This document shows positions 1-50,100 of a stretch of 53,612 nucleotides of DNA, one piece after another. The position numbers and the translations under genes are program-made. Numbering within the stretch: the stretch's first letter is position 1; each line of letters starts with the position of its first letter. A model generated the notes under the pieces. The model made no database searches and was not told the origin of the DNA. It saw only the letters and a list, made by a program, of their open reading frames with translations. Source of the DNA: Reclinomonas americana ATCC 50394 (lineage: Eukaryota); NCBI GenBank assembly GCA_048213135.1, contig PS015120.1, positions 1 to 53,612 of the forward strand. Reading direction: 5' to 3'.

Positions 1-3000
1 ACCACCACACAGGGCATGGTGGTGGAGGAAATCGAACTGGTCAATCATGGGAGCGCCTTTATCTCGGTGGACGCGAGTGCAGATCGAACGAGCAAGTGGG
101 ATGTAAGTCGTGTCGCCCTTCTTGCGTTGTGCAGCAGCTGACATGTGTAATGTGTACAGTTGATCTTGCCGGCCAAGCAGATCCGCACGGCGAGGGAGAT
201 TGAGAGCGGACAGAACAAGAGCGACACCAAGGTGTTTGTAAGCAGCGATTTCAAGCGTGCAGCGCAGCAGCCAATGTTGCGTCGTTGTTGTTGTCGTCGC
301 CGTCGTCGGCATCGCTTGCTTACTTTGCCGACTCACGCTTTTTCCGCGCAGTAAGTTTATCCGGTTCACGTGCTCGCAACCATTTCCACCCGAGTCGCCG
401 GTCGGTCTGGCGCGTGTGGTGATTCGCGGGCGTGATCCGTCGGCTCCACCGTCGGCTGCGTCGGCGTCGGGAGCGGCGCGCGATCCGGTCAAGAAACAGT
501 TGCCGCCCAAGCCAACAGTGGACCCGGCTGCTGCACGACCAGCACCACCGCCACCGGCTGCCGCCACGGCTGCGGCGCCACCACCGACCAATGGCGGAGC
601 GAAGAAGCAGCTGACGGTGCCGGATCTGGGTGACGAGGATGAGGATTTGATGAGCGCCGACATCAGCCCAAAGAAACCCGTGGTTGGTGTCGTGTTGTTA
701 CCAGCAACTTGATTGTCGTTGTTCATTCCTTTCTGCGTGCAGAGGTTTGGAACAAAGACAGCTGCGGCCCCAGCACCAGCAGGAGCAGGAGCAGCGAATC
801 CATTCGCGGCCTCCAAGAACACACAGCCGGGTTGCGTGTGCATGTGTGCGCGCGTTCGTGCATATCGCTCTTGCTGTTTGCTCATCCGCTTGCATGTCGG
901 CAGTGTTTGCCTCAGACCCTGCCTCGGCCGCCGCCGCCGCATCTGCGCCTGCATTGTCGTCTGCGACGGCTGCGCCCGCCGCCTCCAAGCCTCCACGCCC
1001 GCCAGCCACCCGCCCCAAGTCACCTTCGCCACCGCCGCCACCACCAGCTGCGGCACCCAAATCCGCTGCCGCTCCGGCCGCTGGCGGAAAGAAAGGAAAG
1101 AGTGGCCCGAAGGCGGCCAAGGAGAAGAAGAAGAAGCAGGGCGATCCGTGGGCCGAGGAGGCAAATGTGGCGTTTGGCCAGCTGATGGTATCGCGTTCTG
1201 TCGCCTTCTTGCTCATGAGAACGAGGCGCCTGATCGCAGGTGTGTGTTGCAGCGCGGCTTCCGCATCGTCATCAGTGGCATTCAGAACCCGGAGCGTGGC
1301 GATCTGCGAACCAAGGCCCTGAAAATGGGTGCCAAGTGCGCTTCTGTTTCTATTGCCCTTCTCTGCCTCGTGTGCTCACGATGCCGCCCATTGCAGGTAC
1401 GATCCCAACTGGTCCAACGGCTCCACTCACCTCATCACACCGTATGCCAACACACCAAAGTACTTTGAGGCGAAGAGTTGCGCTGCATTGAACGAGTCTG
1501 TATTGCTCGCAGAGACTCATGCTCCTCTGTGCGTGCAGGTGATGGCGGCACAATCGTGAAAAAGGTGAGCATCATGCATCCTTTGGTGTAGTCTCTCTCT
1601 CTCTCTCCCACTGACTCACTTGTGAAACAGGAGTGGATCAACGACATGTTCGACGAGAAGAAGCGATTGCCGATTCGTCCATATCTGTGGGATGGTGCGT
1701 CTCCTTGCCAAATTCATGCCATTATCATTTCGTCATCTCATTTCTGCGCATACGGCAGCACCACCGGCGAGTGACGACGATGACGACAGCGACGACGAGG
1801 AGGAGGAGGATGAAGATGAGGAAGACGACCTGGGTGGATTTATTGTAAAGGACGATGAGGTCGACACCCCGGCGCCGCGCAATGCCAAGAAAACCGGGGA
1901 CGTGTGGAACGCCGACGACGAAGACGCGGAGGATATGGATGACGAGGAAGACGAGGACGATGACGATGCGAAGAGCTCCGACACCATCGACATGGGCAAG
2001 GAGGACAAGGAGTACAAGCCGCCCGGTTCGTGCGCATGATTTGTTACAAGCTCGCTCCTTCTTATCGCTCACTTTTCCTACGCACGGCAGCCGACATTGA
2101 TGTGCCGACTGCGCGTTCACGAGATGCGCCGGCGCGGCAGGCGGCCGCCAAGGCGTCGCGAGTGGTGGCCGAAGTGTTGCACGACTGGAGCGAGGGTGAC
2201 GACGACGAACCGGCCAAGAAGAAGCGCAAGACAACGGGTCACAAGGGTGCCGGTTTCGGCAGCCTCGACATGGACGTGGATGAGGCGCCACCAAAGGGCA
2301 AGCGCGCACCCACCCCACCCGTCGCTGCCGCCGCCGCCGCCGCACCACCACCACCACCACCAGCACCCGCGGCAACGAAACGCGCACCAACACCACCGGC
2401 TCCCGTCACAGCTGCCGCACCGGCTGCACGAACGCGATCACTACGCAGTGCGTCGCCGGTGCCGGTTGCCGCCGCCGCTGCCGGCGAAGACGATGGTTGC
2501 GTAGCCTTCTGTGCCTTCCTTTTGACTTTTGTTGGTCTGAACACCCTCTCTCGTGCAGCCTGGATCACGGAAGACATCAACGCTCTGCGCGACGAGTTGC
2601 TGTCGTACACCAAACAACCGCGCCAGTTCTTGCAAAAGGTCTTTGACGACGCTGTGGAGGAGCTTCCGGGCAACAAGCAGGCCGCCACGGGTGCGCGCAT
2701 CTGTGTGTGTCTCGTCCCCACAACATCCATACTGACCTGTCGTTGATCATTCACTTCACCGCCCTACAGCATACCTCAGCAACTGGCCACACCCATGCCG
2801 CGTTCCGCGTGCCATTCGCAAGGCACTCCGTCTGAAGAACATTGGCGAGCAGCTTCGCACGTGGGGGGACAGGTACTTGGCCATCTGGGACCAGACCTCA
2901 GCTCCCGCCGCCACCTTCCTCAACTCGGTTCGCTGCTTCCTCGAGCCGGCGCTGGGCGACGACGAGATCACCGAACTGACCGCCATTGTCGAGGAGTGCG

Positions 3001-3247
3001 GAGGGTACGCACACACCATCCCTCCTTCTCTCACTCACTCTCTAACGCCAGCTAACCACGAGCTGCAATCGGCAGTGCGGTGTGTGGCAAGGTCGACGGC
3101 TCGACCACGCACATTGTGACCGAGGACTACGTGAACCTGCCGAATGCCAAGTGGCAGAACACGATTGTGCAAGTCGAGCCGGCCTGGATCCGCCAGTGCA
3201 AGAAGAAGCAGCGCATGGTCGATGCCGATCCGTTCTTGGTCGACTGA
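1..3247 (+). CDS. XRCC1: XRCC1-like DNA repair scaffold (N-terminal domain + BRCT1 + acidic linker + BRCT2), 5'-partial, multi-exon
   Basis: Spliced translation gives XRCC1-NTD-like EEIELVNHGSAFISV...LILPAKQIRT...KFIRFTCSQPF; BRCT1 RGFRIVISGIQNPERGDLRTKALKMGAKYDPNWSNGSTHLITPYANTPKY...IVKKEWINDMFDEKKRLP; C-terminal BRCT ECGGAVCGKVDGSTTHIVTED...VEPAWIRQCKKKQRMVD; stop TGA 3245-3247. Confidence 0.88.
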
Positions 3248-3290
3248 TAGTAGCGCAGGACAAGTGTTTTGCAAAGTGTGAGAGAGGGCA

Positions 3291-4351
3291 ATGGATGAGG
3301 ACTACGATGATGATGTTCCCGTGTGCTTCTCTGCGCTGTTTGCCGACGCCAGTGTGACGTCACCGTCCATGGCACTGCGCGGGCGTCATGTGTTTGTCGA
3401 CCCCGTCATTCATGTGCGTCTCTCTCTCTCAACAAAGAAAGAAGAGTGACTCTCTGCCTCACTCACACATCCGCATCTGCGCGCAGCACATTATGTGGTG
3501 CAGTGTGCCTGCGCATCGACTGTGGGAGCGCGGTGGCATTCGTCACCTCTCTGTCATCAGTGACGATCTCTCACAAATCACAGACAACCGTCTGTTGCGT
3601 CTCTCTCTCACTCACACACACACACTGTCACTATGTGTGCACACTCACACAGGCGCATCACACAGACTGCGCGACTCGCTTGACCGCTGTGTGCAGTCGG
3701 GTGCGCCTCTGAAAGCCGCCTTTCTTGTCAGTGGTCTCTTGTCGCAGTGGCAGCGTCGTGTGGAGCAGATTGTGGAGGCACTGGAGTTCACTGATGTGGC
3801 AGTGCACACCACCTCTGACACACTGCTGGCCGCACTGGAGCATGAGTGCTCCTCGTATGAGTTGCGCTCCTCCAGGGGAAGGGAGTGTTTGTTGTTCACC
3901 ACACTCACTCTGTGACACACGCAGAGAGTTTGAGGAGGCAGTGACACAGCGCATTCGACGTGCCACAAAGCACAGCAGCATGTTTCGTTTTTTTTTCTGA
4001 CTGGTCGCAGCAGCGCGTCCATGCTTCACTCATGTTGTGGTCGTGTTAGCTCGGTGCGCGTGCACTACCTGCCACTGTTCTCGTTCGAGGTGTTTCCGCA
4101 GCTGCACATCTTCCCGTCGTTCTGCACGGCACGTGATTGGATGAAGCATGGTGGGGCTGTGGCGACTGCGGATCCGTTTTTCATGCTCGAGTCAGAGCTG
4201 GAGGCGCAGCTCGAGGGGCAACGGTGTGTGCGCGCGATGTGGGGAGAGGCGAGGACTGTGCTTGTGTTGGGCACTAACCGCTGCTCCTCTTGTCGGCAGA
4301 CTCTCCGAGGTCGAGGATCTGAACCCGGTCAAGGAGCGCGTCTCTTTACTC

Positions 4352-4393
<42 letters not shown>

Positions 4394-6343
4394 GTGGGGT
4401 GCGTGGGAAGAGAAAGGCTGGTGGCTTACTCCACTCAGCAAATGCACTGGCCACCACCATTGCGTACCAAAACCTGGAGCTGAGTCTGTTTGCGTGCGGT
4501 CCGCTGGCACACCTGGTGGCCGCCCGCACGCAAATGTACTTGTCGCGGACGGAACACAGTCGCGAGGAAAAGGCCGCCGTGGTCATTGTGGATCGAGTTG
4601 CGTGGTGGCGACGGCGAACTGATGATGCACAGGGGTATTTTTCGTACTCACTTGCTTGATGCAGGCACTCGATCTGGCCTCGCCACTGCTGGCGGCCACG
4701 CATCTGGTCGATCGCCTGTTTGAGATGCACGAGCGACAGGCGCAGCGCGCCACCGACATTCTCATTCCTCTGCCGGGTGATGACGTCGATGGAGGTGACC
4801 GCACTCATTCTTTCTCGCTCCTTTCCGACTCCTCCTTCCTCTTGTGCGCTGACATGACATACAGGAGCCCTGCTCACGCACTCACTTGTACAACCGGATC
4901 CGCATCGCTTGCGTGTGATTTGCGACAAGAGCACCGTGTGTTCGAACACAGACGCTGTTGCATCTGCCGGCACCGTATATGCGCGGCTGCGCAATGTGTT
5001 GGACAAGGACCCAGTGTGCCACGACTTTATTCACCACTTGCCTGTTGCGTGCAGTTGAATGATAATTCCTGTCTGTGGAGTGAAACAGTGTGGAATGACG
5101 CATGGGCGTGCAGCAGGTCAAGAGTCCAGTGACACCGGTGGAGTTCCGCCAGTTGCTCCCGTTCCGAGACGATGGCGTGGGTGCGCACTTGGCGCGGCAC
5201 CAACACCTGTTGCCGCTGCATGCGTTGGCGCTGGCCTGTGCCGGCGCTCTCGATGACACGCCCGCCAATCGTCGAGCAGCACCGCTGCGTGAGATGCAGG
5301 AGGTATGACTGGCAAGCATCGTGACGCTGCCCCAGCATCGTGCGTGTGTTCTCACTCCCTTGGCCGTCGGCAGATGCTGATATGGCTCTCCACGCAAGAA
5401 TCACCGGAGGAGACGTGTCTCGCACAGATTGCCGCTCACGTCAAGGCCAACGGTGCGTATTTGTGCGCGCGCGGCGTCACAAACTCACCTTTGCTCACTC
5501 GTGGTATGTGTTGTGCAGCCGACATGGAGTTTGCGGACGCGGTGTCACTTCTCGTGTTTTGCTGTTCTTTGCACGGACCGAACATGGTGCCTGTATTGCA
5601 TGCTGGTGGCGATACGGGCCTGCTGGGCAGCATTCTGCACCACTTCCGCCGCTTGGAGCTGCGCGAGGAGGTGACCGATTTGTTGCACCAGGTGGCGGTG
5701 TCTCGCTCCGAACTCGGCGACGATTAGTTGTGTCTCGATTGGCACGTGCTTTCCTCCAATGCGTTTATTTCTTACAATGCACGCCCGTCCTTGCTGCCAG
5801 CTTTGGCTCGCTGCTCAACCAGGACAGCGAGTCGCTGCAGGGCGTGTGCTCGCGCATCATCTCGGTGTTGGGATCCGTGGACCATCGCAAAGTGCGCGAC
5901 CACGGCATCATGCCGATCGACGACGGCGGCGTATCGTCACTGCTGTCTTCGTCGCTGAGGTGCGGTAGCGCTCATTCGTATTCATATGCATGTCTCACGA
6001 GTCAGCACCACTCATGCGTCGCCGTTCACACGCAGTGCCTTCTTCACCTCGTCGAAAGACACGGTGTGGAGTCGCTCCGACACCATTATCATTTGCGTTC
6101 TCGGCGGCATCACGCTGGCCGAGTATCGCGACATTATGACTGCGGCGAACGCACAGGCACAATCGAAAAATGTTACGCGTGCCCGTCACGCATATCTCTC
6201 TCTCGTGCACGCTCATGATTGACGCATCCACTCGTGTGTGTCATCTGTCGCAGATCATGATATGGTCCACCAGTCTGCTCGACGCCAACTCTCTCGCTCG
6301 ACAACTTGCCACCCGCGTGCCAACCGCATCCTCAAAATTGTAA
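3291..6343 (+). CDS. Sec1/Munc18-family protein, SCFD2/MIP3-like, multi-exon
   Basis: HVFVDP...HIMW...RLWERGGIRHL N-terminus, VRVHYLPLF, KAAVVIVDR|ALDLASPLL..THLVDRLF, and C-terminal TIIICVLGGITLAEYRDI...IMIWSTSLL, typical SM-protein motifs; ATG 3291, TAA 6341-6343. Confidence 0.78.
4353..4391. repeat. (TG)n microsatellite in an intron
   Basis: Perfect run of about 19 GT units. Confidence 0.95.
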
Positions 6344-6376
6344 CCTCTCTCCGTCATTCATTCCCTTCTATACTGC

Positions 6377-9300
6377 CTACTGCGCCAGCCACTTCTCTAT
6401 GCGATCAACCAGTTCCCGTGTGGCCGGCCGTACTCTCCGCGCCTGCTGCTCCTCGTCGGCACCCGCCAGTCGCCACACTCGGCTCCAGCCGTCGTGCAAC
6501 GCCTGCTGCATTGCAGATCGCACGCTTCGCTCACGCAGCGCTGGTGAGCGCGGCACGTCCTCGTCGCTACCATCATCGCCGCCATCGTCACCGCTACCAT
6601 CTCCGCTACCACTACCACTGCCGCTAGCGCCCTCGGCCGCCGCCGTGGAAACCGCCATTTGCGATGCTGATCGCGGCGCCAGGTACCGTCCAAGGAGGCA
6701 CACGTTGCGATGCACGCGCTCCCAGTCACCTGCATTCCTCCACCATCAGCACTGCGACTGTGATTCACAGAACCACACACACAAAAAAAACACACTCACC
6801 GCTATCGGCCGCGCTCACTAGTGACGCCGCCATGGCTTGCGCCCACTGCACCTGGACATCACCGGCCGGCGATCGGCATGCGACCGCCGACAGCAGCGCC
6901 GCTGTCTTCACCAGCAGCACGCTGTCGTCATCGAAAAACATGGGTTGCGCTGCCGTCCGACACAGATGCGTCCACAGTGCCGCGTCCTCCAGCAGCAGAT
7001 GCACCAGCGGAGTCTTGGTGAAGGCAATCAACAGATCCAGCAGCGTGTACCGCACATTGAAGAGTGCATCCTCCAGATCCTCCATGCCAAACTCGTCGTC
7101 CTCGTCGTCGTCGTCACCCTCACCACGATCCTCTCGCGCACCCTCGCGTGCATCTCGTACGCTCAGCCGCTCATCGGTAAGCTCATCCGACACGAATCGA
7201 ACGGCCAGTCGCAGCAGCAGCTCGCACTCGTCGTGCAGTGCGTTGGGTTCCTCCAGCTCGTCGCCGGCACCCAACAGCAGCATCTCCAACGTGTGCAAAC
7301 AGAATGGACCCACAGTGTAAAACTGGCGACTGTGTGTCGCCAGCGAGCCCGCCACGGGCAGGAAGCGCGAGCGCAGCAGGCGGACGGCTCGAAGCCGCGC
7401 ATCGGCGCTAATGGCATCCGGGCACGCAAACGCAATGCGGCCGAGTCCACGCATCACACTCGCGAGTGCGTCAATGTCGTGCAGGTCGGGCTGGAACGAC
7501 TCAATGGTCATCAGCAGCAGCGACACGGTTTCGGTGACCAGGGGCCGGAAGGCGTCGGCTTCGTCGTCGTCCATCAAGCAGAAGGCAACATCTCTGCATT
7601 GTGGAGTGGTTAGCCAGCGAGTATCCCTGCTTCACGCGGGGACGAAGTGTACGCAACGCCAGGATTTCAGGATCGCGCAAACGGAACAAAATGAGATGCT
7701 TCAACTCCTCCAGGTGCGACTTGACGTGATGCTGTGCGGTGTGCAGCAGCGCGATAAGACGACCATGGTACCTTTTCAACTTGTTGGAACGCAGTGCGGC
7801 ACAACGCAACATCGGCCACACGAATCCATGCGCTCAGCGCCTTGATGACACCGACTCGCACCTCGTGTACCTTCTTCTCGCTCCACTCGCGCTCTTCACC
7901 GCCCTGCTGCTGCTGAGATGGCACAGGACGCTCATTTTCACGGGCTAACCGCATTGGCCTGGCATCGTCATCGTAATCATCATCGTCGTCATCGTCGTCA
8001 TCCTCCTCGCCCTCTCCGTCATCGTCTTCCTCTTCGTCATCGACGTGACCACCGCGGCTAATGAACCCCGGACTCGCATCCGCTTCCTGCTCTCACGTCA
8101 GTCAATTTCACACGCTTCTTGCGCAGCGCACAGTTGACACTCACCAAGAACCGCTCCGCGCACGTCTTGAGCGTGCCAAAAAGCGAGTCAAGCGGTGCCG
8201 AGCTCTCGTCGGACGATGAGGCCACACGCGCGAGGAACTCTGCGCGCCCGCACATGCCATCACTTCCATGCACGACAAGGGTGGAGAACACACGCGCAGA
8301 ACTTACCATTGCCACCTGCAACGGCTGACATGGCGGCACAAAACTTGCGCAGTGCCTTCAGCGTCGGCAGCAGCACCAGCTCAGGATCCGGTTTGGGGCC
8401 AGCGCGGTCGCCGCGGAGAGTCCGCGAACAAAACTCCAACAGTGACTCGGCAAACATGGCGAACAGCGGATGTGCCGGCGACATGGCCGATGTCACAAAA
8501 CTCAGCACCAGTGGCACGACATCAGGACACTCGGCTGCATACACAGCAACAGCATAGACAGAAGCGTGAGATCGCAGCGGCCACAACGTTGGGGGTGTGA
8601 TACCAACCTTGCACTTGCTCGTTGCACAGGGCGCTGTGCAGCGTCTCCAGCAGCACTCGGGAAAAGGGAAAGTCTGTGTGTGCGAGTGAGGACGGAGAGA
8701 AAGAGAAAAGGGAGGGTGGATGATAGAGGTCATAACTCTGCTCATCCAGCAGCACGGCGACACGCTCCTCCTGCTCTTTGCTGGTCAGCACAGGTGGGTG
8801 ATCCGTCTCCCCAGCATCCGCGTCTTGCACAGCCTCAATGAGCTCCGTCACCACAGACGACTTGGGCAGTCGGTGCTCGTCGCAGCGCAGATTGCACGCA
8901 TTCTCCGCCACACGTCCGGTCAACTCCAGCGCCGCCGACAGCGACAGCCGCACACCGTCACCGACACCAAGACTGGCCACATGCATCGTGAGGGAAATGA
9001 TACGCACGCTCACGCACACGCACAAATGGGAGCGACTGTTTCATGACGCACCTCACAATCGGCACCGACACCTCCAGAATCTCGCGCGACATCTCCAACA
9101 ACGACAGCGGCGACAGCATGCCAACCACTGTGCGCATGTACTTGATGCCGGTGACAAAGAGCATATGTGCGTGCTGCTGCCGCGCGTCTTCTCCTCCGTC
9201 GGCAGCCACCACCAGCGCCAGCGCACTCTGCGACAAGCGCGACAGGCACACCAACACTGCACGGGTGGCCGTCTCGCCGCCAATGCCGGCACTGTACTCC

Positions 9301-10096: not shown

Positions 10097-13000
10097 ATGC
10101 GACACGTGAGCGCGTTGTCGCTGGCGGTGGCAGCAGTGCTGCTGCTGCTGTTGGTGGTGACTGTGAGTGCAGCAGCACCCAACTTGCTGGTGAACCCGCC
10201 AGCGGGTACGCCACCGGCCGTCGGCAGTGTGGTCGACTATGAGCAGAAGCGCGGCAACGGCTTGTCGGTGAAGAGCAACTCGTTGGTGAATCTGACGCAG
10301 TCGCAAAAGGATGCGCTCATTGCGCAGCACAACACGGAGCGTGCGGCTGTCACCGGCGCCAACATGCTGGCTGCCGTGTGGGACTCGGGTGCGTTGTTTC
10401 CCATGCTACTCTTGTAAGTCGCAGTTTCGCTCATCGTGGTTTTTCTTTCGTGTAGCACTCGAGGCCGATGCTGCGGCGTGGGCTCTGTTGTGCGTCTTCC
10501 AGCACGACTTGAGTGGCACGGGAGAGGGCGAGAACTTGGCTGCGCAGTGGCCGTTCAGCTCCATCACTGCCCCCACGCAGCTGGGACAGGGTTGGGTCGA
10601 CGAGAAGCAGTGTTGAGTTGTTGTTGTTGGTGTTGTTGTTGTCTATTTCTCGCAACTCGGCACTCATGCGTCCCACAGGGTACACGTTCCCCAGCACGTG
10701 CACAGCACCAGCGAGCGACACCTGCTACCATTACACGCAGGTTTGATGCGAGCGAGACTGTGGGTTTGTCGCGCGCGTTCTTCTAAGATTTAAGCGCATA
10801 TATCCTTGTTGTCGATAGATGATCTGGGCGTCGAGCTACCGCGTCGGGTACGTACAACTCTCTTCCCCCAGCAAGGGTTGACCCCGTGGCTGACATTTGT
10901 TTTGCGTCTGCAGCTGCGCGTTGGCCAACTGCATGGACACGGCGAATGACAATATTCCCGCTGGCGGTAGCAACTGGGGCTTCCTGGTGTGCTTTATCTT
11001 TATTTTGCTCTTCCCTCTTTCATCTCGCGCAGTTGCTCACTCGTGCTGGTGTTCGTTTCAGGTGTGCCGCTACTCGCCGCAGGGCAACTTTGTCGACGGC
11101 ACCGGCACTCTGCTGCCGCCGTACACTCCGGGTCAGTGCACCAACTACAACAGCGGCTCTGGCACATGCCCGAGCACGCAGCCCGTGTGCACTGGCAAGC
11201 TGTGCTACGCCTCGACGAGTTGCGGAGAGGACTCGCCATTGGTGTCGCTAGTTTCTGCACTCATACACGCACGCACATTCGCTGCAGGCTTCAACTGCTC
11301 GTCGCTGAACAACTGCAATGGTGCCGCTGGTACCTGCACGGCAAACAATGTCTGGTGTGTTTATTTGACTTTGCATAATCTCCTTCGCCTCGTATTTCAG
11401 CATCTCACTTTCGTCGCCACAGCACGTGCAACGCTGGTTTCACTGGCGCCGACTGCGGTTGCAACACGTCGAGCTCATGCACTGGTGCCAACCAGACATG
11501 CAACACTGCCGGCGTCAACGGTGCTTGCTCATGCATTGGCAACTACGCCACACCTTCTTGCACTCAGTGCCTCAACGGATTCTACGGCACGACCTGCACC
11601 GGCACCTGCTCCACCTGGTCAGTACACGTCTCCACTGTAGTCATCAACGTGCCGTCGCTGACATGACTAACCATCCCCTCGTTCTCAGCGTGGCGGCCAA
11701 CACTCAGTCGTGCACCAGCACCACGTCGGGTGGCTGCAACTGCAAGGCGGGTGCTGCCGGTCCCAACTGCCAGTACACCAACAGCGGCACTTGCAGCGGC
11801 CACGGCACTGCGCAGGCCAATGGCTCGTGCGTGTGCAATGCAGGCTACAGCGGCGCCGACTGCTCGTCTTGCGCCGCCGGTTTCTACGGCCCCACGTGCG
11901 CCGGCAGCTGCTCGGCTTGCAGCGCTGCTGGCACGCAGTCGTGCAGCTCGGGTATCAATGGTACTGGCTGCGTCTGCAACACTGGCTTCACTGGCACCAA
12001 CTGGTCTGTGCACTCGCCGTTCCCTCACATTTGGCGTGCGTCGGCGGTGGCTCACAAGCTGTGCGCTTTTGTTTTTCCTCACGCAGCGACCAATGCTTGC
12101 CCGGCAAGTTTGGTCCGACTTGCAGCGGCACGTGTCCGACGTGCCAGAACGGTGGCACGTGCAACTCGGTGGGTCGACAGCAGTGCTGCTGACGATATAT
12201 TGTCACTGGGCAACTCATGTGTTGCGCTCCGTAGGGTGTGTCGGGCAATGGAACGTGCCAGTGCCAGGCTGGCTCGAGTGGCCCGCTCTGCCAGTGCATC
12301 AACGCCACCACCTGCAGTGGAAACGGCTCGTGCGACAGCAGCGGCTCCTGCGTGTGCCAGTCTGGATTTGTGGGCCCCGCCTGCCAGTGCCAGAATGGAA
12401 CCACTTGGTGCGTTGTGTTTGTGTGTGCATGTTTGGCATGGCTGGCTTGTCGCTCACACAACCCCACCAATACTGCAGCAAGAACGGTGGAACATGCCAA
12501 GCCAACGGCTCGTGCTCGTGCACTGGCAACTTTGGCGGCTCCACTTGCAACACTTGCCAGCCGAACTTCTTCGGTGCCACCTGCTCCGGCGTGTGCCCGA
12601 CTTGCCTGAACGGCGGCACGTTGCGTGGAAATTGGCCATTGATAAATGGTGTGCAGTGCCTTGTGACTCATCGCCTCTCCCGTCATCAGTTGCAACCAGG
12701 GCATCTCTGGCAACGGTCTGTGCCAATGCCCTGCAGGCACTGCTGGCGCCACTTGCCAGTGCTCCAACGCCACCACCTGCAACGGAAATGGCACGTGCAA
12801 TGCCTCCGGCACTTGCGTGTGCAGCTCCAGCTTTAGCGGGTCAGATTGCTCGCAGTGCGCCACTGGCCGCTTCGGCAGCGCTTGCGACGGTGACTGCAAC
12901 CAATGTGATGCTATTGGCTCGTCTGGCTGCTCGCAGGGCGTTGCCGGCACCGGCTGCCAGTGCAAGCCAGGTTTCACTGGCAAGTTCTGCGACCAGTGCC

Positions 13001-16000
13001 AAGCTGGCAAGTTCGGCAACGATTGGTGCGTGGAATCGCTCGCCTGTCACACACCATGGCCAGGGAAAGTCACTCAACGTACTTGCGCGCAGCTCCGGCT
13101 CTTGCCCGACATGCCTCAACGGCGGCACTTGCAACGGCGGTCGCCAGGGCAACGGTATCTGCTCGTGCACCGGCAACTTCAGCACCGCCAACTGTGGCGA
13201 CTGCAAGCCCAACTTCTTTGGTCCCGAGTGCACTGGCAACTGCGGTGCTTGGTGAGTGCTCACTTGCCGCCGCCACGCTTGCACATAATCACTCACATTT
13301 TACGAAATGCAGCACGGCGGGTGCGTCGTCGGGCTGCGTGCCGGGCATCAACGGCACTGGCTGCACGTGCAACGCAGGTTTTGCTGGACCTCTGTGCCAG
13401 TACTCGGATGCAGTGACTTGGTTACGTCGTTATTCTTGTCTCTCTCTCGCTGCAATGCACGTGCTGCTGTCTTTGTCTTGCTGACGAGATTCATCCTGCA
13501 GCAACGGGCGTGGTGTGGCACAAAACAACGGCTCGTGCGTCTGCAGCGGCAACTATGGTGGAGCCAATTGCAGCAGCTGCGCCACTGGGTTCTTTGGCCC
13601 GAACTGCACTGGTCAGTGCGCCAATTGGTGAGTGTGGAGTGAGTTGCGAGTTATTTTTGGGGTGATGGAGGTGCTGACTCAGGCGATGGACGCAGCGTCG
13701 CGGCCAACACCTCGTCATGCACCAATGGCCCCTCGGGCACTGGCTGCGTGTGCAACATTGGAGCCGCCGGCACCAACTGCCAGTTCACCAACGCCACGAC
13801 TTGCAATGGTCACGGCACAGTAACGTCCACTGGCAGCTGCGTGTGCACCACAAACTTCACCGGCGCCACTTGCAACGCATGTGCCACCGGCCTCTTCGGC
13901 GCGCAGTGCGACGGTTTGTGCTCGGCGTGCAATCCGACTGGCACCGCATCGTGCTCGGCCGGCATCAACGGCACCGGGTGCCAGTGCAAGACCGGTTTCA
14001 CTGGCGACAAGTGCGACAAGTGCGACGGCGACTTTTTCGGTCCCAACTGCGAGAGCGACTGCCCGACCTGCCTCAACGGCGGCGTGTGTGACACCAACTT
14101 GTCCAGCACCGGCAAGTGCATCTGCCCGGCGAACTACGCTGGTGACGTGTGCGACATTTGCGCGCCAGGATTCTACGGTCCAAGCTGCGCTGGCTTGTGC
14201 TCGCAGTGGTGCGTTGGCTTACCATCTTGTGTAATGATTCCATTCCCTCCTTTGCAGTCACTCACCTGCGTGGATGTGTTTCGCAGTGTGTCGGCCAACA
14301 CGGATTCGTGCCAGGGTGGTCTGGCGGGTGTCGGCTGCGTCTGCAAGAACGGCGCTGTGGGTGCCCTCTGCCAGTACACTCGTGCACTGACCTGCTCCGG
14401 CAACGGTATTCCGGTCGCCGACGGCTCATGCGCCTGCGACATTGGCTTCACCGGTGCCGCGTGCAACATGTGCACCGCCAATCGCTCCGGACCCAAGTGT
14501 GTCGACTGCTCCACCTGCAACGCCAGCAACACGCTGGCGTGCAGCCCGGGCATCGCCAACGCCGGCTGCCAGTGCAAGGCCAACTACGGAGGCCCGACAT
14601 GCAGCGACTGCGCGCCGGGTTTCTTTGGCGCCACCTGCACCGGCATCTGCGCCACGTGCACCAACGGTGGCACTTGCAACGGTGGCATCAATGGCAATGG
14701 TCAGTGCAACTGCCCGACCAACCGCGTGGGTCCGACGTGCGCCACTTGCGCCACGAACTTTACCGGTGCCGACTGCCTCTGCAGTAAGACATCGGGCTGG
14801 TCAGTGCCTCGCAATTTTGCGTGTGTCATTTTGGTATCCGCTGTGCAACTCATAGGATGATGATCTTGCAGCACTGGCCTCAACCAGCTCGGCTGCGACC
14901 CGACTGGCACCAACGGGCAGTGCCTGTGCAAGACCAACTACGATCCGACCACCAATTGCACTCGTTGCGTTTTGCGTGCAACCAGGCACACAAGTGGGTT
15001 GTCACTGGGCGGTTGCTCACCTCGCTGTATATGCAGAGTGCGTGTTTGGCTGGACCGGTCCGAACTGCTCGCAGTTGCTGTTGCACCCCAAGCTGCAGCC
15101 ACCGAAGGAGGTGTTTGGTTTCCGCCTCGGCAAGGGTGCGCATGAATTGCTTTCTCTGTCCCTCTCTCTCTCTTCCATCCTCTCTTCTTCTTTTCACACG
15201 TTGCATGTGCGTTTCGCAGTCAACAACTTCCTGCGCAACACTGCCTGCGAGAACACTCAGTTGAAGATTGAGTGCCCGAGCCTCGAGTTCATCCACTTGA
15301 TCGGCGCCGCCTGGCGACCGGCGTGGCCGACGGAGTGCCCGGCTCAGAGCCTCAATTTCAACCACGGTGTGGCCTCCGGCTGCAAGGCCGCCTACGTCAT
15401 CAACGACGTCAGGCCGTACTGCCAGGGCCTGCAAAAGTGCTCCATCACGCTGGCGGATCTGCGTCTGAAGAAGACGTGTCCGGGCGCCGGTGTCGACACT
15501 GGCTACCTGCTCGAGGTCGACTACGTGTGCACGGAGACGCAGAAGGCGTACCAGCCGCGCCCGTCCGGCTTGTCTGGCAAGCGCAGCCATGGTCACGGTC
15601 ACCGCCAGGGACACGGCCACAACAACTACAATGGCGGTCGCGAAAACCACCACCACCACGGACAGCAGCGTGTTAACCAGCACCAGCACCAGCATCAGCA
15701 CCGCCAGCCGATTGTGAACCAACATAATCACAATCAGCATCACCACCATCAGCACAACCGCGTCAACTCGGCCACCAACTACAACCAGCCGATTCGCCAG
15801 TACAACGGTGACTACGATCAGAACGACGCGCCGTACGTGCAGCCTGTGCGCCCGTACAATGCGCCGCGGCCATCGGCCCCGCCGCCACCACCGCCGTACG
15901 GCTACGCGCCGATCAACGGCAACCTGCCGCCACAGCAGCCGTACTACGATGCCCAGCAGCAGTACCCGTACCGTGCGCAGGCCGCGGCACCGTTTGGCTC

Positions 16001-16070
16001 GCAGTACGCCACCGATTACGTCGACTATGCTTCGGCGGCGACGGCACCGGCCAACGACCAGGACAGGTGA
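10097..16070 (+). CDS. Secreted protein: signal peptide + CAP/SCP (PR-1) domain + long EGF/laminin-EGF array + SUEL-type (Gal_lectin) domain + His/Gln/Asn/Pro/Tyr-rich tail
   Basis: Signal MRHVSALSLAVAAVLLLLLVVTVSA; CAP motifs HNTERA, VWDSALEADAAAWA, GEGENLA, CYHYTQMIWASSYRVGC, FLVCRYSPQGNF; dozens of CxCxxGFxGxxC repeats (about 11290-15075); TACENTQLKIECP...VRPYCQGLQKCSI...KTCPG...YLLEVDYVC at about 15220-15535; stop at 16070. Confidence 0.9.
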
Positions 16071-16500
16071 CTATTTGTTGTGTGTATGTGTGTGTGCATG
16101 TGTGCCTCTTTCTCTCGCCATTGCTGCTGTGTACTGATGCAATGTGGGGTGTTGCAGTTTTGATTACTGGCAAGGACAATACGATGACCAGGCATCCTAT
16201 GGTGGAGCCGCCGACTATCAGCAGCAGCCGACAGGCGCTGCATACGGCAGCGACGACTACGATGCATGGGCGCCTGCCGCCGGCAACAATTATTACCCGT
16301 AATGTGTGGGATGGAAAAAAGATAACGACAACAAGATCTGAATGTCTCTTTCATGTTTGTGTGTGTTTTGTGTGCGTGTTCTCTGCGTCTCCATGTATGT
16401 TGCGTGTCACTATTGCCTCTATTTTCCCTCTCGAACGCGAGCGAGCACCCATGTTGTGAAACATTGAAAAACCGAATGCGCGTGCTGTGAAAAACTACAT

Positions 16501-34500: not shown

Positions 34501-36830
34501 ACATACCCGCGCGCTGTCGCTTTCGCAGCACAAGCAGCACCAGACCGTTGACGTAGTGCGCCACACAGATGAAACCATCAAACAGGATCCACCACGACAC
34601 CGCCGACCGATTGCCCAGCCAGTGTAACCTCAGCAGCGTGAACAGCACCGCTGTGCAGGAAGAGAAGTGTCAACAACGAGGAGGCGATGCACGGAGGAAG
34701 GGCGTCGCACGCAACTGCCGGCACACACGGCGGCGCACGAAGCCACCACAAAGAAGCGCGTGTACGGCCGTGGCACCGACCAGTGATGCACCAGCACCAG
34801 CCACACAAACAGCATCGTAAATGTCTCGCCACCACAGTCGACCACCGCGCGCACAATCTGCCCGCCGAGGTTCTCCGACGACAGAAACATGTTGCGCACA
34901 AAGTCCGCCGTGAAGATGATGAACAGAACAAAGAAGAAGAGGTGGTGCGCCGGCTGCAGAATCGTGTGTCGTATCCTCAGCAGCGTCAGTTTGCTGCGAG
35001 ATGAAATGAGGACAACTCGCTGAAGTAGCGGCGACAAAGGAAGACGAGCTGCCTTACTCCCTCCGCGCACTCGCTCACTCGCAACATGGGTCGCTCATTG
35101 GCTCACTCTTCCTCTTTCTTCAACTCTCCTTCACTCGTCGCTTGGCTCCTGCACTCACTCCACTCACTTCCTCGTTCTTTCACTCACTCACCAACTGCCA
35201 ACATCGCTGCTGCACCCAGCCTCCTTCAACTCGCTCTTCTCTCTCCCTCATCTCAGTGCTCCTTCGCTCCTTCCGCTCACTCACTCTCTCGCTGCCAAGC
35301 TCATGCACTTGCTCATTCTTCCGTTTGCCCCTTGCTATTCCTCCGTTCTTCGACTCACTCTTCTCTCTCACTCACTCCGTCTCTCGTTCGTTCACTCGCT
35401 CGCTGCCACAGTCGCCGCGTAAGTCGCCGGCCTATGTCGCTCACTCACTACCTGAGTCGCTCACTCTCCTTTGCTCCTGCACTCCCTACACTCAGTCACT
35501 CTCTCGTTCTCTCGCTCACTCTCTCGCTACCAAAGTCGCCCACTTGTTCACTCTTCCCTTGACTCTTCTCTCTCCTTCACTCTTCCTTTTCGCTCTTGCA
35601 TTCCCTGCACTCTCGTTCTCTCACTCACTCGCTGCCAAGGTCGCTCACTCACTCATTCTTCCCTTTGCCCCTTTTTCCTCCGTCTTTCATGTCACTCATC
35701 TCCTCGCTCCTTCTCTCGCTCCAGCATTCCCTGCGNNNNNNNNNNNNNNNNNNNNNNNNNNNNNNNNNNNNNNNNNNNNNNNNNNNNNNNNNNNNNNNNN
35801 NNNNNNNNNNNNNNNNNNNNNNNNNNNNNNNNNNNNNNNNNNNNNNNNNNNNNNNNNNNNNNNNNNNNNNNNNNNNNNNNNNNNNNNNNNNNNNNNNNNN
35901 NNNNNNNNNNNNNNNNNNNNCTCTCGTTCTCTCACTCACTCGCTGCCTAAGTCGTCACTTAGACTGCTTTAAGCGCCACTTAGTCGCTCACTTGCACCAC
36001 GCTTTCTCTCCCCTTTCGCTCCTGCACTCCCTCCCTAACTCTCTCTCTCTCTCTCGTTCTCTCGCTCATTCACCGCCAAAGTCGCTCACTTGCTCATGCC
36101 TCCCTTTGCCCCTTGCAAGTCCTCAGTCCTCCATGTCACTCTTCTCTCTCCTTTCTCATCTCTCTCTCTCTCTTCCCTCCCCTCTTCTCCCCCCTCTCCC
36201 CCTCCCACTCCCTCCCTCCCTCCCTCTCCCTCTTTGCGCCCCCACTCACCGATAGTTGCGATTGATGGAGATGAGGACGACGACGACGGAGATGAGCATG
36301 AGCGACGAGTTGAGAAAGACAAAGAGCGGTGCATTGAGCCAATTGACGCGATGCAGAAACGCCGATCCACATGCGCCACACGGAATCGTGTAGTTGGCCG
36401 AGGGCGGAATGTCGTCAGAGCCCGCACAGGAGGGGTACTCGGGCCGGTACTCGTGTAACATGTGGTGTGCGAGAAAGAAAGAGAGAGGGTGGGGGTCGGT
36501 GCAACTCACACTCTCTTCCTCTCTCTTCTCTCACTCTGTCACACACGCACACAATCAAGTTTAACACAGAGAGACACGCGCGCGCGTGCGGGTGACGATG
36601 AAGGTGAGGACGGGAGCATGAATTTTTCACCCACCGGGTACGTATACGGGGTACGGTCGACCAGAAAAAGAAGGGGACGGGGTTCTTCCCAGCAGCCCCA
36701 GCTGGGGTACAGCTGTACCCCAAGTTCGCGGTCGAAGTCGACGTCGACACAACGTCAGCAAACAAGTCGATTGTTGAGAGTTCGGCACACGCTCCTCCGA
36801 TCCGGATCCCTGGCGTCGGGAGCGCTGCAC
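31586..36830 (-). CDS. Seven-transmembrane (TPRA1/GPR175/Cand2-like) receptor fused to a TKL-group protein kinase, multi-exon, interrupted by gaps
   Basis: Kinase: IGTGSYGDVYLARWNG|VAVKKI, FVGEMKIMASLRHPNIL, GSLFELL, LHYLHSHVPPILHRDLKSANVL, VVWELVTHKRPF, CLQRDPDLRPSF (DFG/APE region falls in gap 32182-32323). Upstream exons (33930-36350) encode seven hydrophobic helices ending GFCLWMVALPIHYLLFPFITYFVFLAD. Confidence 0.82.
35065..36245 (-). repeat. Long intron of degenerate tandem repeats (CT-rich on +, GA-rich on the sense strand)
   Basis: Recurrent unit like ctctcgttctctcactcactcgctgccaag.tcgctcact at about 35500, 35610, 35921 and 36050. Confidence 0.85.
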
Positions 36831-42680: not shown

Positions 42681-42832
42681 TAGCCTACAACTCTTTCGTG
42701 GGCGCAGTGCTGCAGGCGCGCGCGAGAGAGATGATGCGAAATAAAAAGGTTCACCGTTACTGGGGTACGTTCGCGGTAGAGGCGAGGAGCACACAAGAAA
42801 GAGACAAACAAATTGCGGTACAGAGAGTGTGC

Positions 42833-44493
42833 TCAGTGGCTGACAATGACCGTTTGCGTAGTGGTTTGCTGTGCACGTGCAGACAGAAAGAAAACAGGTG
42901 AGCAGTTGGCGAAAAGGAGTGTAGCTGTGAGAGGAGGCAACGAACCTTGCCCTCGCGATTGCCCTGCGACGACACCTCGATCGAAGAGGTGAGCATAAGC
43001 ACGCCCCACATGATGCCCCTGTGCGTACGCGTGTTAGACAGAGTTGTTGAGCAGCTGCAAGAGGACGACATGGTTAACGGTGTCGCGTACACACCACACG
43101 TAGCCTGTGAAGCGGAACGGGTACCCAGCGGAACAGAGAGGTCAGAACAAGAGACAAAAGAAGCAAATTAATTTAAACAGCAACATCGACAAACCAATAA
43201 AGAAAATCAATGTGCAAATGAGCTGGAGGACCCTGTAAGGAGAGAAGACAAGGGAGGTCAGAAATAGACTCTAGGCTTGCACAGTTACTAGAATCATGCA
43301 TCACTCACCACACCCTTTTGGCCATTAAAAATTAAAGGCGAGTAGAAAAATGAGACACAGTTGGTTTGAACAGGACATTACATCACGACGACAGGAGCAG
43401 TCAAGGCAAACCAGAAGTTGATCCAGAACACTATACATACACGACACGACAATCAGCATCCCGCACTCGCAGCAGCTGCAATTCATTTGCATTCGTCCAG
43501 ATCCCGACCAAATTAATACTCACCTCCGCAACCTGTGGCCACATCGTGCTTGGCAGTGCTGTCTCCCTTCTGCACATATTGACGCCAACAACGTCAGCAA
43601 TAAAGCACGTCACCCTTGCACACTCAGGCACTCTCGAACCGGGATCGGGCAGCAGCACTCTGTGCAATCCATGGCCAGCCACGATCGCGAATCAGAAATT
43701 CAAACGCAAGGACAACGTTGCAACAACTATACAAGACTCAAAGGCCGAGCGAACACACCCTCACTGCCACCAGCAATGGCACCAATTAGCGTGCCCAGTG
43801 AGCCAGGGAGGAGGTTCTATGCGCACACAGTGAGACAGGAGATCGTACACAACAACAGCCTGCAAAAAACTCCAACATGTGAAACAAAAAAAGACGCAAC
43901 GAAGATGAAGCAGATGATGCCCCACCACAGACGCATGCGCGGAATCGCCAGCTTGAAGCGCTCCATGCAGCTGCCCTGCTCCTTCACCGTCGTCTGCACG
44001 ACAGTCACCTACGCGACGACAAACAAGATGCATATATGCATTTGCAAGCATTATTATAATTATTGATCATGACCAGCACTTGCCAAGCAGAAGAACAGTT
44101 CGTTTGCACACCTGCGGAGCTGGGTACGAGCCAGGCTACAATACACAGAGACGTAAGTCACATGGGAAGAGGAGGAAAAGAGGAGGAGAGAGGCAGAGGA
44201 ACACCATCGATACCTGTCCAGGATACGATCCGGATCCCGGCTGTGGGTAGCCCTGCGGCGGGTAACCCGGCAGGGAGCCCTGCGGCGGGGGGTAGCCAGG
44301 AGCGCCGTACTGTGGAGGGTAACTGCCCGGCTGGCCCGCCGGTGACGCGGGAGAAACCTGTCCGTGCTGTGCGCGAGAAGAGAAAAGTGTGTGAGGAGCG
44401 CGCAGCGCTCGCAGCGAGCTCGAGGCGCCGGCGTTTGGCGGGTGCGATCAATCTCTGTCTCACGCGCACAAATGACGCAACTTCGTGGCCCAT
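42833..44493 (-). CDS. Stum/SPEC3-family small membrane protein with Pro/Gly/Tyr-rich N-terminus; 13 exons including micro-exons
   Basis: Hand-spliced product MGHE|HGQ...YPPQ repeats...|VTVVQTTVKEQGSCMERFKLAIPRMRLWWGIICFIF|NLLPGSLGTLIGAIAGGSEECCCPIP|KGD...GCGVFWINFWVWVLQLICTLIFFIGYVWGIMWGVLML...QTTTQTVIVSH* matches the family pattern AIP.M....A.IC...N...PG.GT...VFW.N....LQ.....G..W.I.WG; all junctions GT-AG and in phase. Confidence 0.85.
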
Positions 44494-47732: not shown

Positions 47733-50100
47733 CCGACGGCAACAACATCGCCGACGTGATGCTCCTCGCCGAGGCACTCTTCCTCGGCGGTCAGTACGAA
47801 CGCGCCTACGAAGTCATTACGCTGCGTCGACTGCACGCGAGGCACCTCCCCGCGCTGCTGCTGGCCGGACGGTGTTTGGTGAGGATCACACCAAGCAAAC
47901 TTGTCTCCCTCCATCAGTGGCTGACCACCAACAATCGCACGCAGGAACGTGCCGAGCAGTGGTCTCCGTGCCTGCTCCTGCTGGGCGAGGAGGAGAGTGC
48001 GCTGGAGCGCGACATTTTCAGCCGTGCCGACGATGCAGTGACCACCGACGAGAAGGATCTGTTGGCCGATCTGTTTTCGCTGCGCGGTCGCTGCTGCGAG
48101 CAGCAAGAGGACACGGGGCAGGCGGCCAAGTGGTACCAGAAGGCGCTCAGTTTGAACTCGTATTGCTTCGAGGCCTTTGACGGTCTCGTCAATCACTCTC
48201 TCGTGACACCGGCTGTGGGTGCGTCGGCGCAGTGGCTGCCGCATGTTTTAATGTCGCGGTCTTCCCTTCCTCCTCACCTCCTCCTCCTCCTCCTCCTCCT
48301 TTGTGCAGCCGAAGAGCAGCTGCACACTGTCAAGTTCCTGCCCGAGGAGGAGTGGTTGCGCTGCATCTACACCATCAACTTGTCGCTGGTGAGTGGAATG
48401 AGACTCGGGTGATGCGTGTGCTAGTGATCGCACTGATGTTTATGTGATTGCGCAGTACTCACCCACCACCACCGTGCGCGACCTGATCGACCGCCTGTTC
48501 CATCAGTACAAGATGAAGCGCAACACATTCGTCGGCGGCCTGTACGCTGCCATCAAATTTCACCATCAGAACTACGAGGGCGCCTACAAGCTGACCAAGG
48601 AGTTGCGATTGGGAGTTCTCTCTCTTTGTCTTCGTCCGTTGCCGTCCTTTTCACACTCCTTTTCTCGCACAGGCTGCTGAGTGGCAACGGAGGGTGGGAG
48701 TTGGGCTCGGCGGACGATGCCCTTCTCTGTGTATACGTTGCCTGTCTGGTTGCACTCGGTCACAAGAGCGAGTTGTTTTACGTGTCGCACCGTTTGATTG
48801 AGGACTTTGCTGGACGTCCCATCTCGTGGTACGCTGTCGGCGCCTACTACTACCTGCTCAAGAAATTCGAGAATGCGCGCAAGCATTTCAGGTGCGGCGC
48901 GCTGCACTCTTCGTCTTGCATCTGTGTGTGTGACGCGCTCACGGATGTGGTGTGCAACGAGCAGGAAGGCGACGCAGATGAATCCGCGTTTTGCTGCTGC
49001 CTGGGTGGCGTACGGTCATGCGTTTGCGGCGCAAGATGAGAGCGACCAGGTGTGCTGGCATGGTTCATGTCCCGTGGCATTCCTATCTGCTCATCACTGT
49101 GTGCAGGCCATGACCGCCTATCGCACCGCCTATCGCTTGGCCGAGGGCTCGCACATTCCGGCGCTGTGTGCTGGCATGGAGTATGCACGCGCGGCGAACA
49201 CGTTCCACGCCGAGCAGTACCTGATGAAAGCGCAAGCGGCGTGCCCCGAGGACCCCATGGTGTTCAACGAACTCGGTGTCCTCATGTACAACAACAAGGA
49301 GTTGCGTGGTTGGATGACGGAGGTGCGGTGTATGAAGCAAATAATTTACTGTGGTGATCCATGTGTGCACAGTTTTGTGGAGGCCGAAAAGTACCTCCGA
49401 CACGGCCTGCGGTTGGTCGGCTCTGTCAGTGCCATCAACAAGGAGAATCAGGTGTTGTTCTTCAACTTGGCACACGTTCTGCGGAAGACACAGTTGCGTG
49501 GAGCGAGCGAGTGAGTGAGTGGGAGGAGGTGGTGCTGATGCGTTGTGTGCTGCGTGTGCTTGTGAATAGGCGGTATCGCGAGGCCATCGACTTGTTCCTC
49601 TTGTGTCTGACGGTGGCACCGCAATCGGCCACCATTCTGTCGGCTCTGGGTCTCACGTATCACACAAACAGTCAGCTGGATCAGGTGCGCATAGGCAGGA
49701 AAAGAGAAGTTCCTTATTGCCGTGCTCACCCGTGCGGTCGACGTGCACGCAGGCAATATCTTGCTACCAAAAGGCGCTGGGCGTGAGGCCGGAGGACACG
49801 CTGGTGAATTCGTTGTTGAATCGTGCATTTAAGGAGCTCTTTGAGACGCCAGGACCAGATCCAGTTCCACGTGGTGCGTGTTTGCGTGTTTGCGTGTATG
49901 TGAAGTCTGCTTCCTTGCCTCATCGGTATCTATGTCCGTGCGCCCATGCAGTGGACAGTCCGCATGGAGCTGTCAGCTTCCCGGAGCGGTGGTTCCGCGA
50001 ACCATCTCCCATCCCGCGCGTCACCGAAGTCGGCGGCGCCGATGCGTCGATTACGCGAGATGATGATGTGGACGACGTGGACGATGACGACGAAGAATAG
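47733..50100 (+). CDS. CDC16: Anaphase-promoting complex subunit 6, copy A (exon 1 missing, presumably in the upstream gap)
   Basis: TPR exons ISWYAVGAYYYLLKKFENARKHF, AWVAYGHAFAAQDESDQAMTAYRTA...GSHIPALCAGMEY, PEDPMVFNELGV, FFNLAHVLRK; stop TAG 50098-50100. Confidence 0.93.

Follow-up and report, generated by a model that had tools for sequence, protein, structure and literature searches.

After the GU itself, the best-conserved positions of a 5' splice site, or donor, are G+5 and G-1, and U1 registers offset from this pattern are, to our knowledge, known only as rare mammalian exceptions. In human cells, 68 and 51 sites were predicted to use the bulge +2/+3 and +3 registers respectively, of which 54 and 36 remained after curation, and the validated noncanonical registers together were estimated to account for 1.5% of 5' splice sites (PMC4856993, accessible part). 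Human cells also contain extra U1-like genes, some of which are assembled into small nuclear ribonucleoproteins (snRNPs) (accessible parts of PMC3561869 and PMC10870369), and these variant U1 small nuclear RNAs (snRNAs) provide a precedent for a second donor reader. In C. elegans, the M141T change in SNRP-27 causes one-base changes in 5' splice-site choice (PMC6140464, accessible part). Here we analyse donors in a stretch of 53,612 nucleotides (nt) from Reclinomonas americana ATCC 50394 (GenBank assembly GCA_048213135.1, contig PS015120.1), hereafter the window, in which many introns begin with GTTGCGT or a close relative of it.

In about a quarter of the introns of this window the conserved block sits one base further in, G-1 is mostly lost, and one such site is preferred over a nearby classical donor. 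We refer to these sites as the offset class, and with a high degree of confidence we regard the class as real, abundant and exact at the nucleotide level. How it is read by the spliceosome is a more tentative matter, for which a change in the RNA that recognizes the 5' splice site is considered below together with its alternatives.

Results

Abundance and donor specificity of the offset class

Introns were predicted on the 53 kb with a purpose-written dynamic-programming gene finder whose score combines three-periodic coding potential with intron length, branch site and acceptor, and which was trained iteratively from open reading frames (ORFs) with Pfam support. In the flat-donor run the only donor requirement was GT (or a penalized GC); as it carries no donor information, this run cannot favour any donor motif. 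It returned 15 genes with 136 introns, and a run with a learned first-order donor model returned 16 genes with 128 introns, 102 introns being common to the two. A curated non-redundant set was derived from the common introns by removing the gene of the second CDC16 copy (copy B), which would have led to double counting of paralogues, and by replacing donor 49511 with 49493. Of its 90 introns, 52 have G+5 (termed canonical here), 23 belong to the offset class and 15 show neither pattern.

In the flat run GTTGCG outnumbered every other donor hexamer (21 donors, with GTGCGT at 12 and GTGAGT at 9), and it also headed these three in the learned run (25, 15 and 10). Within the genes of the flat model it makes up 39 of 2557 sense-strand GT sites (1.5%), and the 21 donors observed among 136 compare with 2.07 expected from random GT sites (p=3e-15). 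An earlier reading of the sequence alone had named, as an outcome that would tell against such a class, a frequency no higher than independence predicts; GTT[GA][CA]G donors numbered 22 against 2.16 expected. That reading had also proposed that donors with T+3 carry their G at +6 and not at +5, and this was borne out both in the predicted introns of the flat run (26/42 with T+3 versus 9/94 of the others, Fisher p=5e-10) and in the 102 common introns (24/33 versus 5/69, p=2e-11).

The raw count of GTTGCG, 68 on both strands, is unremarkable against shuffled sequence (52.3 +/- 7.2, with 3 of 100 shuffles reaching 68), so that the signal lies in where the motif is located and not in its number. 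Of 30 GTTGCGT heptamers on the two strands of the window, 15 (flat) or 19 (learned) were donors and 3 or 1 lay in sense exons, whereas the donor share of GTGCGT was 12-15 of 83 and that of GTGAGT 9-10 of 78. Copies of GTTGCG inside introns numbered 8-10, as against 21-25 at donors.

The sequence-only reading had listed 17 cases across 6 genes and called them a mainstream donor class. All 17 sites do carry the hexamer given for them, with T+7 in 14; the flat model selected 13 (missing 49493, 44481, 6172 and 10612) and the learned model 14. With 23 of the 90 curated introns, spread over 9 of the 13 intron-containing genes, the description as mainstream is upheld on a broader basis. About 13 further sites lie beyond that list: 3861, 5044, 11219, (-)7810, 7657, 18961, 18243, 33773, 33268, 51646 and 50947, with 43532 and 26661 as weaker candidates.

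Anatomy of the motif and type of intron

The ordinary donors were as the first reading had described them, the triplets at +3 to +5 of canonical donors in the curated set being GCG (16), GTG (9), GAG (8), ACG (6), CAG (3) and TCG (3). Its summary of the second class as the ordinary motif plus one T holds in part. The GCGT block is indeed displaced by one base, giving G+6 and T+7 (the latter in 18/24 offset donors), but the cores and the exon side differ from those of canonical donors. After GTT the core was GCG in 19 of 23 offset donors as against 16 of 52 canonical ones (p=4e-5), and the GAG, GTG and ACG cores, which together make up 23/52 of canonical donors, were nearly absent. On the exon side, G at -1 fell to 3/23 from 46/52 in canonical donors (p=4e-10), A being the commonest base there (10/23), and G at -2 rose to 12/23 from 6/52 (p=3e-4). 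C occupied +5 in 22 of 24 offset donors (about 92%), with G at +4 and +6; the G+5 of U2-type donors is thus absent from the class by its very definition. Neither the core difference nor the exon-side difference is predicted by a single bulged U on a normal U1 helix, so the class is more than a canonical donor with an added T, and we infer a discrete and strict motif, G-N|GUUGCGU.

Away from the donor the two kinds of intron were alike. All 23 curated offset introns start with GT and end with AG, their length is 71 nt as against 69 nt in canonical introns, and a YTNAY branch motif (CTCAC, CTCAT, CTGAC) was present in 22/23 and 44/52 respectively, the median distance to the 3' end being 19 nt in both. 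The acceptors, GCAG or ACAG, were also alike, and the offset class occurred in all three intron phases (5, 8 and 11 cases). Offset-class introns are therefore ordinary U2-type GT-AG introns that differ only around the donor.

Two observations concern the remaining donors. Besides G-1 in 46/52, canonical donors have T as the commonest base at -2 (25/52), in place of the A of the usual CAG|GT, and C as the commonest base at +4. GTATCG was predicted as a donor at 1188 (+) and 44213 (-), with C+5 and G+6 after GTA, and these two may represent a further, smaller class whose extra base lies at +4 (GTA-T-CG). The Sec1 Pfam match described below ruled out a third GTATCG donor, at 6123.

Junctions fixed by protein comparison

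Five offset junctions were fixed without any donor model, through restoration of both the frame and a conserved protein: three in a gene for an EGF-repeat protein (12620, 13421 and 14964) and two in a CDC16 homologue (49301 and 49493). For CDC16, an exhaustive profile search gave 85 relatives and the spliced model matched along its length (best E=1.5e-94); junctions were scored with a profile of 30 full-length homologues, 12 of which are displayed in the alignment. Two further junctions have protein matches bearing on them, and the remaining offset junctions rest on reading frame and coding score. The sites are as follows.

12620..12626, plus strand: GTTGCGT donor in the EGF-repeat gene; gapless match to an uninterrupted repeat, 18/23 identical with 4/4 Cys; the GC alternative at +3 is rejected.
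13421..13427, plus strand: GTTACGT donor in the EGF-repeat gene; spliced peptide aligns without gaps to an uninterrupted repeat, 14/23 identical with 2/2 Cys.
14964..14970, plus strand: GTTGCGT donor in the EGF-repeat gene; C-x2-C spacing over the junction as in uninterrupted repeats, 3/3 Cys.
49301..49307, plus strand: GTTGCGT donor in CDC16 copy A; junction gapless against the 12 displayed homologues; variants at +3, -15 and +27 lose 6.4, 19.7 and 14.8 bits.
49493..49499, plus strand: GTTGCGT donor in CDC16 copy A, in place of GTGAGTGAGT at 49511; 516.4 bits versus 504.8 for 49511.
48602..48608, plus strand: GTTGCGA donor in CDC16 copy A; chosen by both models; preferred by the profile over the +3 GC by 1.4 bits, a weak test as a lineage-specific insertion follows.
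6172..6178, plus strand: GTTACGC donor of the last intron of the Sec1-family gene; Pfam Sec1 match over residues 12-43 of the 45-residue exon 6037-6171, E 4e-4.

At two of these sites the first reading and our gene models had disagreed, and in both cases the protein evidence sided with the former. The models chose 49511, an in-phase GTGAGT 18 nt downstream of 49493, which would add 6 residues that are absent from all 12 displayed homologues, and the CDC16 profile favours 49493 by the scores given above. They likewise chose 6123 over 6172, while the Sec1 match reaches the end of the exon that 6172 defines. A canonical junction could be placed by the same kind of evidence: at 1336, in an XRCC1-like gene, the junction is exact, positions 50 and 52 of PDB chain 2d8m_A flanking the split codon.

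In the EGF-repeat gene (10819-16302, plus strand) nearly every intron lies directly before a Cys codon at the boundary of a repeat module, a placement that suggests exon-module duplication as the origin of the protein.

Pairing with the U1 5' end

To score pairing, the segment from -4 to +10 of each donor was folded against the 5' end of a textbook U1, AUACUUACCUG, and the most stable duplex over all registers was kept, whether or not it held bulges or internal loops. Median energies were -6.0 kcal/mol for canonical donors, -2.0 for offset donors and -2.5 for random GT sites, and the area under the curve (AUC) against random GT was 0.84 for canonical donors and 0.40 for the offset class. Good U1 pairing in a noncanonical register was thus not found in the offset class (offset versus random GT, p=0.13), a result that is valid only if the U1 arm of this organism is the textbook one. 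At the CDC16 site the homology-supported donor 49493 pairs at -2.7, and the rejected GUGAGU 18 nt downstream at -6.5. Hypothetical U1 arms in which GC or GCA replaces UU gave AUC values of 0.70-0.92 for the offset class.

For snRNA genes, the window gave no Rfam match at gathering thresholds, and at E<=1 there were 5 weak and irrelevant matches, none of them to an snRNA. One weak match, to mir-598 at about 50.06-50.19 kb, was discarded as it is the palindrome (hairpin) centre of the inverted CDC16 duplication.

Other offset donors in the window

The other offset sites of the window, excepting those of CDC16 copy B, are given here by gene.

276..282, plus strand: GTTGCGT donor, XRCC1-like gene; both models; no in-phase G+5 GT alternative within 40 nt.
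831..837, plus strand: GTTGCGT candidate donor, XRCC1-like gene; both models; in-phase GTGCGCG alternative 15 nt downstream.
1477..1483, plus strand: GTTGCGC donor in BRCT1 of the XRCC1-like gene; both models; upstream exon aligns to 2d8m_A residues 52-75.
2496..2502, plus strand: GTTGCGT donor, XRCC1-like gene; both models.
3861..3867, plus strand: GTTGCGC donor, Sec1-family gene; both models; GTATGAG alternative at -6; newly added.
4597..4603, plus strand: GTTGCGT donor, Sec1-family gene; both models; no G+5 alternative.
5044..5050, plus strand: GTTGCGT donor, Sec1-family gene; learned-donor model only; newly added.
7804..7810, minus strand: GTTGCGT donor, helical-repeat gene; both models; strand set by translation; newly added.
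7651..7657, minus strand: GTTGCGT donor, helical-repeat gene; learned-donor model only; newly added.
10612..10618, plus strand: GTTGAGT candidate donor, probable 5' exons of the EGF-repeat gene; in-frame TGA unless spliced; branch CTCAT and acceptor ACAG downstream.
11219..11225, plus strand: GTTGCGG donor, EGF-repeat gene; both models; newly added.
18955..18961, minus strand: GTTGCGT donor, PHD-finger gene; both models; newly added.
18237..18243, minus strand: GTTGCGT donor, PHD-finger gene; both models; no G+5 alternative; newly added.
34709..34715, minus strand: GTTGCGT donor, receptor-kinase gene; both models.
33767..33773, minus strand: GTTGCGT donor, receptor-kinase gene; both models; with the acceptor unchanged, the +3 GC is the sole alternative in phase; newly added.
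33262..33268, minus strand: GTTGCGC donor, receptor-kinase gene; learned-donor model only; newly added.
32872..32878, minus strand: GTTGCGT donor where the kinase domain begins, receptor-kinase gene; both models.
43894..43900, minus strand: GTTGCGT donor, unnamed gene with a low coding score; both models.
44475..44481, minus strand: GTTGCGT as a candidate donor of an unnamed gene; learned-donor model only; canonical alternatives in phase at +12 and +18.

The 10612 candidate lies upstream of the modelled start codon and outside the gene model; it is plausible from a reading of the sequence. The weaker candidate 43532 has a canonical in-phase alternative at +9. In the comparison with PDB, exon 1631-1693, which would have provided a downstream anchor for donor 1477, gave no match, and no kinase was matched by the exon that precedes donor (-)32878. 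BRCT1 contains a micro-exon of 26 nt (1539-1564, plus strand), flanked by the GTTGCGC intron 1477-1538 and by an intron at 1565-1630 with the donor GTGAGC.

The inverted CDC16 duplication

CDC16/APC6 is present twice at 47600-52640, in inverted orientation and head-to-head at the 3' ends, around a gap of 20 N at 50114-50133. In exons 37 of 1625 columns differ between the copies (2.3%) with no gaps, as against 60 of 744 columns (8.1%) plus 12 gap columns in introns, to which indels are confined; that the introns have diverged more than the exons fits the boundaries assigned to them. The offset sites of copy B are as follows.

51640..51646, minus strand: GTTGCGA donor, CDC16 copy B; paralogue of 48602; both models.
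50941..50947, minus strand: GTTGCGT donor, CDC16 copy B; paralogue of 49301; both models.
50749..50755, minus strand: GTTGGGT, CDC16 copy B; counterpart of 49493 by alignment of the copies.

The last of these accounts for a GTTGGG that had been reported in the second CDC16 copy as still keeping G+6, and which we place at (-)50755.

Gene content and other features of the window

The window is GC-rich (about 59%) and densely filled with genes that contain many short introns. A Pfam scan of raw ORFs and predicted exons identified an EGF/laminin-EGF repeat protein with a SUEL lectin domain, a PHD-type zinc-finger protein, COX17, Thg1, a MYND-finger protein, a Sec1-family protein, a receptor-like protein kinase and the two inverted CDC16/APC6 copies; few matches came from raw ORFs because the exons are short. 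The first gene in the window is XRCC1-like, with two exons that align to the BRCT1 domain of human XRCC1 (PDB chain 2d8m_A). Relatives of the Thg1 exon in the protein collection shared 32-55% identity, the top matches 42-45%. The best named relatives of CDC16 and Thg1 were rhizarian (Amorphochlora, Nonionella and Reticulomyxa), which is a weak hint of affinity at most; Acrasis was listed as well. Word-indexed homologue searches with the CDC16 ORF and the XRCC1 ORF gave no matches, and a metagenome scan for Thg1-related loci found none.

Ten runs of N, of 20 to 947 bases each and 3895 bases in total, span 21462-50133; several fall in unmodelled places, so intron counts in that interval are incomplete. 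At 38616-40159 (+) an exon-like ORF has a weak match to zf-RVT (reverse-transcriptase zinc-binding; E 5e-4); it is probably a retroelement fragment, and little trust can be placed in the introns modelled there, one of which has GTTGTG at 39426. Inside or beside an intron of the Sec1-family gene is a long (GT)n microsatellite (4340-4392, +), and the region separating this gene from the XRCC1-like one has CT and CA runs at other places. The helical-repeat gene on the minus strand is predicted to start at 10365, where it abuts or overlaps an ATG at 10364 that may belong to the plus-strand EGF-repeat gene (interval 10336-10385). At least one of these two 5' ends is mis-modelled, and the EGF model begins at 10819, without a signal peptide.

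Discussion

In this duplex model the textbook U1 arm accounts for the canonical donors of the organism but in no register for the offset class, which it binds no better than it binds random GT; it is therefore plausible that snRNA recognition has changed. The strict C+5, which would face pseudouridine, the lost G-1, which in a bulged helix would be the partner of C9, and the G-2 all point to a reader unlike the textbook arm. We tentatively favour, at somewhat less than an even chance, a lineage-specific change in the RNA that recognizes the 5' splice site. A U1 with an altered or one-base-longer 5' arm would read GUUGCGU; alternatively, an extra U1-like variant would do so with an arm (...ACGCAAC...) that pairs contiguously with it. 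After the hand-over from U1, this proposal, like the main alternative below, would require U6 and the catalytic core to tolerate the extra U at +3 while cleavage stays at the GU. A more specific form of this proposal, which we consider rather unlikely, is that two donor-recognition systems work in parallel in the major spliceosome, the ordinary U1 for G|GUGCGU and a dedicated U1-like snRNA or longer arm for GN|GUUGCGU; in offset introns the cleaved GU and the block paired with U6 would then be one nucleotide further apart at catalysis.

A number of points weigh against a changed RNA. Few RNA sequences are as conserved among eukaryotes as the U1 5' end, which lowers the prior for an altered arm, and because canonical donors fit the textbook arm (AUC 0.84), this organism probably has the usual U1. 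As for the hypothetical arms, the motif itself was the template for their design, so that their good fit is circular and speaks for feasibility only. Nearest-neighbour energies ignore pseudouridine, U1C and other proteins, and some predicted noncanonical human registers behaved otherwise in cells (2016; PMC4856993, accessible part). The junctions come from gene-model predictions and protein comparison, and the snRNA reader is proposed from the donor motif. Ad hoc gene models on 53 kb contain errors: both missed 49493 and 6172, some of the 15 introns with neither pattern are probably wrong, and the candidates 831 and 44481 have canonical in-phase alternatives.

The main alternative is that unaltered U1 and U6 read the offset class in a shifted (+1) or bulged (+3) register, helped by U1C or other proteins, or with U6 and U5 fixing the site of cleavage. 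We take this to be possible, if distinctly short of an even chance. Such registers have been proven in human cells (PMC4856993, accessible part), T+7 (18/24) and G+6 mimic the canonical +6 and +5, and A-1 (10/23) would pair with U10 in the shifted register; the very high conservation of the U1 5' end would also favour unaltered snRNAs. Against this, duplexes of offset donors with the textbook arm are no better than those of random GT in any register (AUC 0.40), and an unaltered U1 gives no reason for selection of a C+5 that faces pseudouridine. The loss of G-1 (3/23 versus 46/52) is the opposite of what a bulged helix in need of compensation would call for, G-2 would face G11 in the shifted register, and 49493 is preferred over a better-pairing GUGAGU at 49511. 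The frequency is also discordant, at about 25% here as against about 120 predicted sites for the human +2/+3 and +3 bulge registers and about 1.5% for all validated noncanonical registers (PMC4856993, accessible part). A sequence-specific RNA-binding protein that binds UUGCGU and recruits or replaces U1 would account for a motif that is discrete, strict and has no textbook snRNA complement. We judge it improbable, as no candidate factor is known, the window contains nothing relevant to such a protein, and the motif keeps the canonical GCGU block, which argues for the same kind of RNA pairing.

The other explanations deny that there is an offset donor, or derive it from elsewhere. That the class is an artefact of the gene models or of TGCG-rich intron composition could appeal to errors in home-made models, such as the missed 49493 and 6172, and to a raw GTTGCG count mildly above that of shuffles (68 versus 52, reached by 3 of 100). 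It is largely refuted, and in our view very improbable, since a flat model that holds no donor information still gives a tenfold enrichment, GTTGCG is uncommon inside introns (8-10 copies versus 21-25 donors), and protein comparison, which does not depend on the models, confirmed five junctions. The sites might instead be GC-AG introns that begin three bases further in (GTT|GCGT), the GTT being exonic, and an in-phase GC alternative with the same acceptor is indeed present at every GTTGCG site. However, the extra residue would break the repeat spacing at 12620 and 14964, and at 49301 it is absent from CDC16 homologues and costs 6.4 bits; the GTTACG (13421, 6172) and GTTGAG members have no GC at this position, and an exonic GTT conserved across all three phases (5, 8, 11) is unexpected for coding sequence. 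On these grounds the GC-AG reading is rejected, its likelihood being minimal. A mobile intron family (introners) whose copies carry a GTTGCGT end would explain the shared start of 7 nt. Once the donor heptamer and acceptor were stripped, however, no pair of offset introns matched at E<0.01, and the best matches, of 12-13 nt, were equally common between classes; with no sequence shared, the introns are not a mobile family and we give the introner reading practically no credence.

An organism with such donors would be a natural experiment on how the 5' splice site is marked, on the hand-over from U1 to U6 and on how the position of the cleaved bond can be set without regard to the motif that is paired. 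In practice, gene finders that score six intronic positions independently would mis-call about one quarter of the junctions; our own models missed 49493 and 6172. A literature search that was shallow and covered top-ranked matches found no report of a GTTGCG/GUUGCG donor class, including in work on the splice-site consensus of Rhizaria.

Comparison with known systems

Among human U1 variants, we know of none that serves a large, discrete donor class. U12-type introns are defined by an extended conserved donor and branch consensus, and their reading by U11 resembles the present case in that a parallel donor class has its own strict motif, which makes them an analogy for reading by a separate snRNA. 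Their consensus is absent here: the donor is GTTGCGT, and the branch (CTCAC/CTCAT/CTGAC), length and acceptor are as in ordinary introns. At about a quarter of introns the offset class is also far commoner than U12-type introns, which amount to roughly 0.36% (PMC4856993, accessible part).

Closer likenesses are found in the displaced U1 registers. Human sites of the shifted (+1) register, cited in the accessible part of PMC4856993, have a GU-U start, a G that pairs with U1 C4 at +6 and not at +5, and cleavage at the GU, as the offset donors do. Unlike the donors described here, those human sites are rare and have a run of the AAGUAU type that pairs well with U1 (same source), whereas the GCGU core of the offset class pairs poorly with the textbook U1, is found in about a quarter of introns and is accompanied by G-2. 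With the human bulge +2/+3 and +3 registers (PMC4856993, accessible part) the offset class shares an extra nucleotide after the GU that could loop out, so that +4 to +7 replace +3 to +6, but it is found in 23/90 introns and loses G-1 instead of keeping it. Finally, SNRP-27 M141T (PMC6140464, accessible part) offers a parallel in that proteins of the tri-snRNP help to set the register between the recognized motif and the cleaved bond. There it is a mutant effect on cryptic sites, whereas the offset donors of this window form a natural class.

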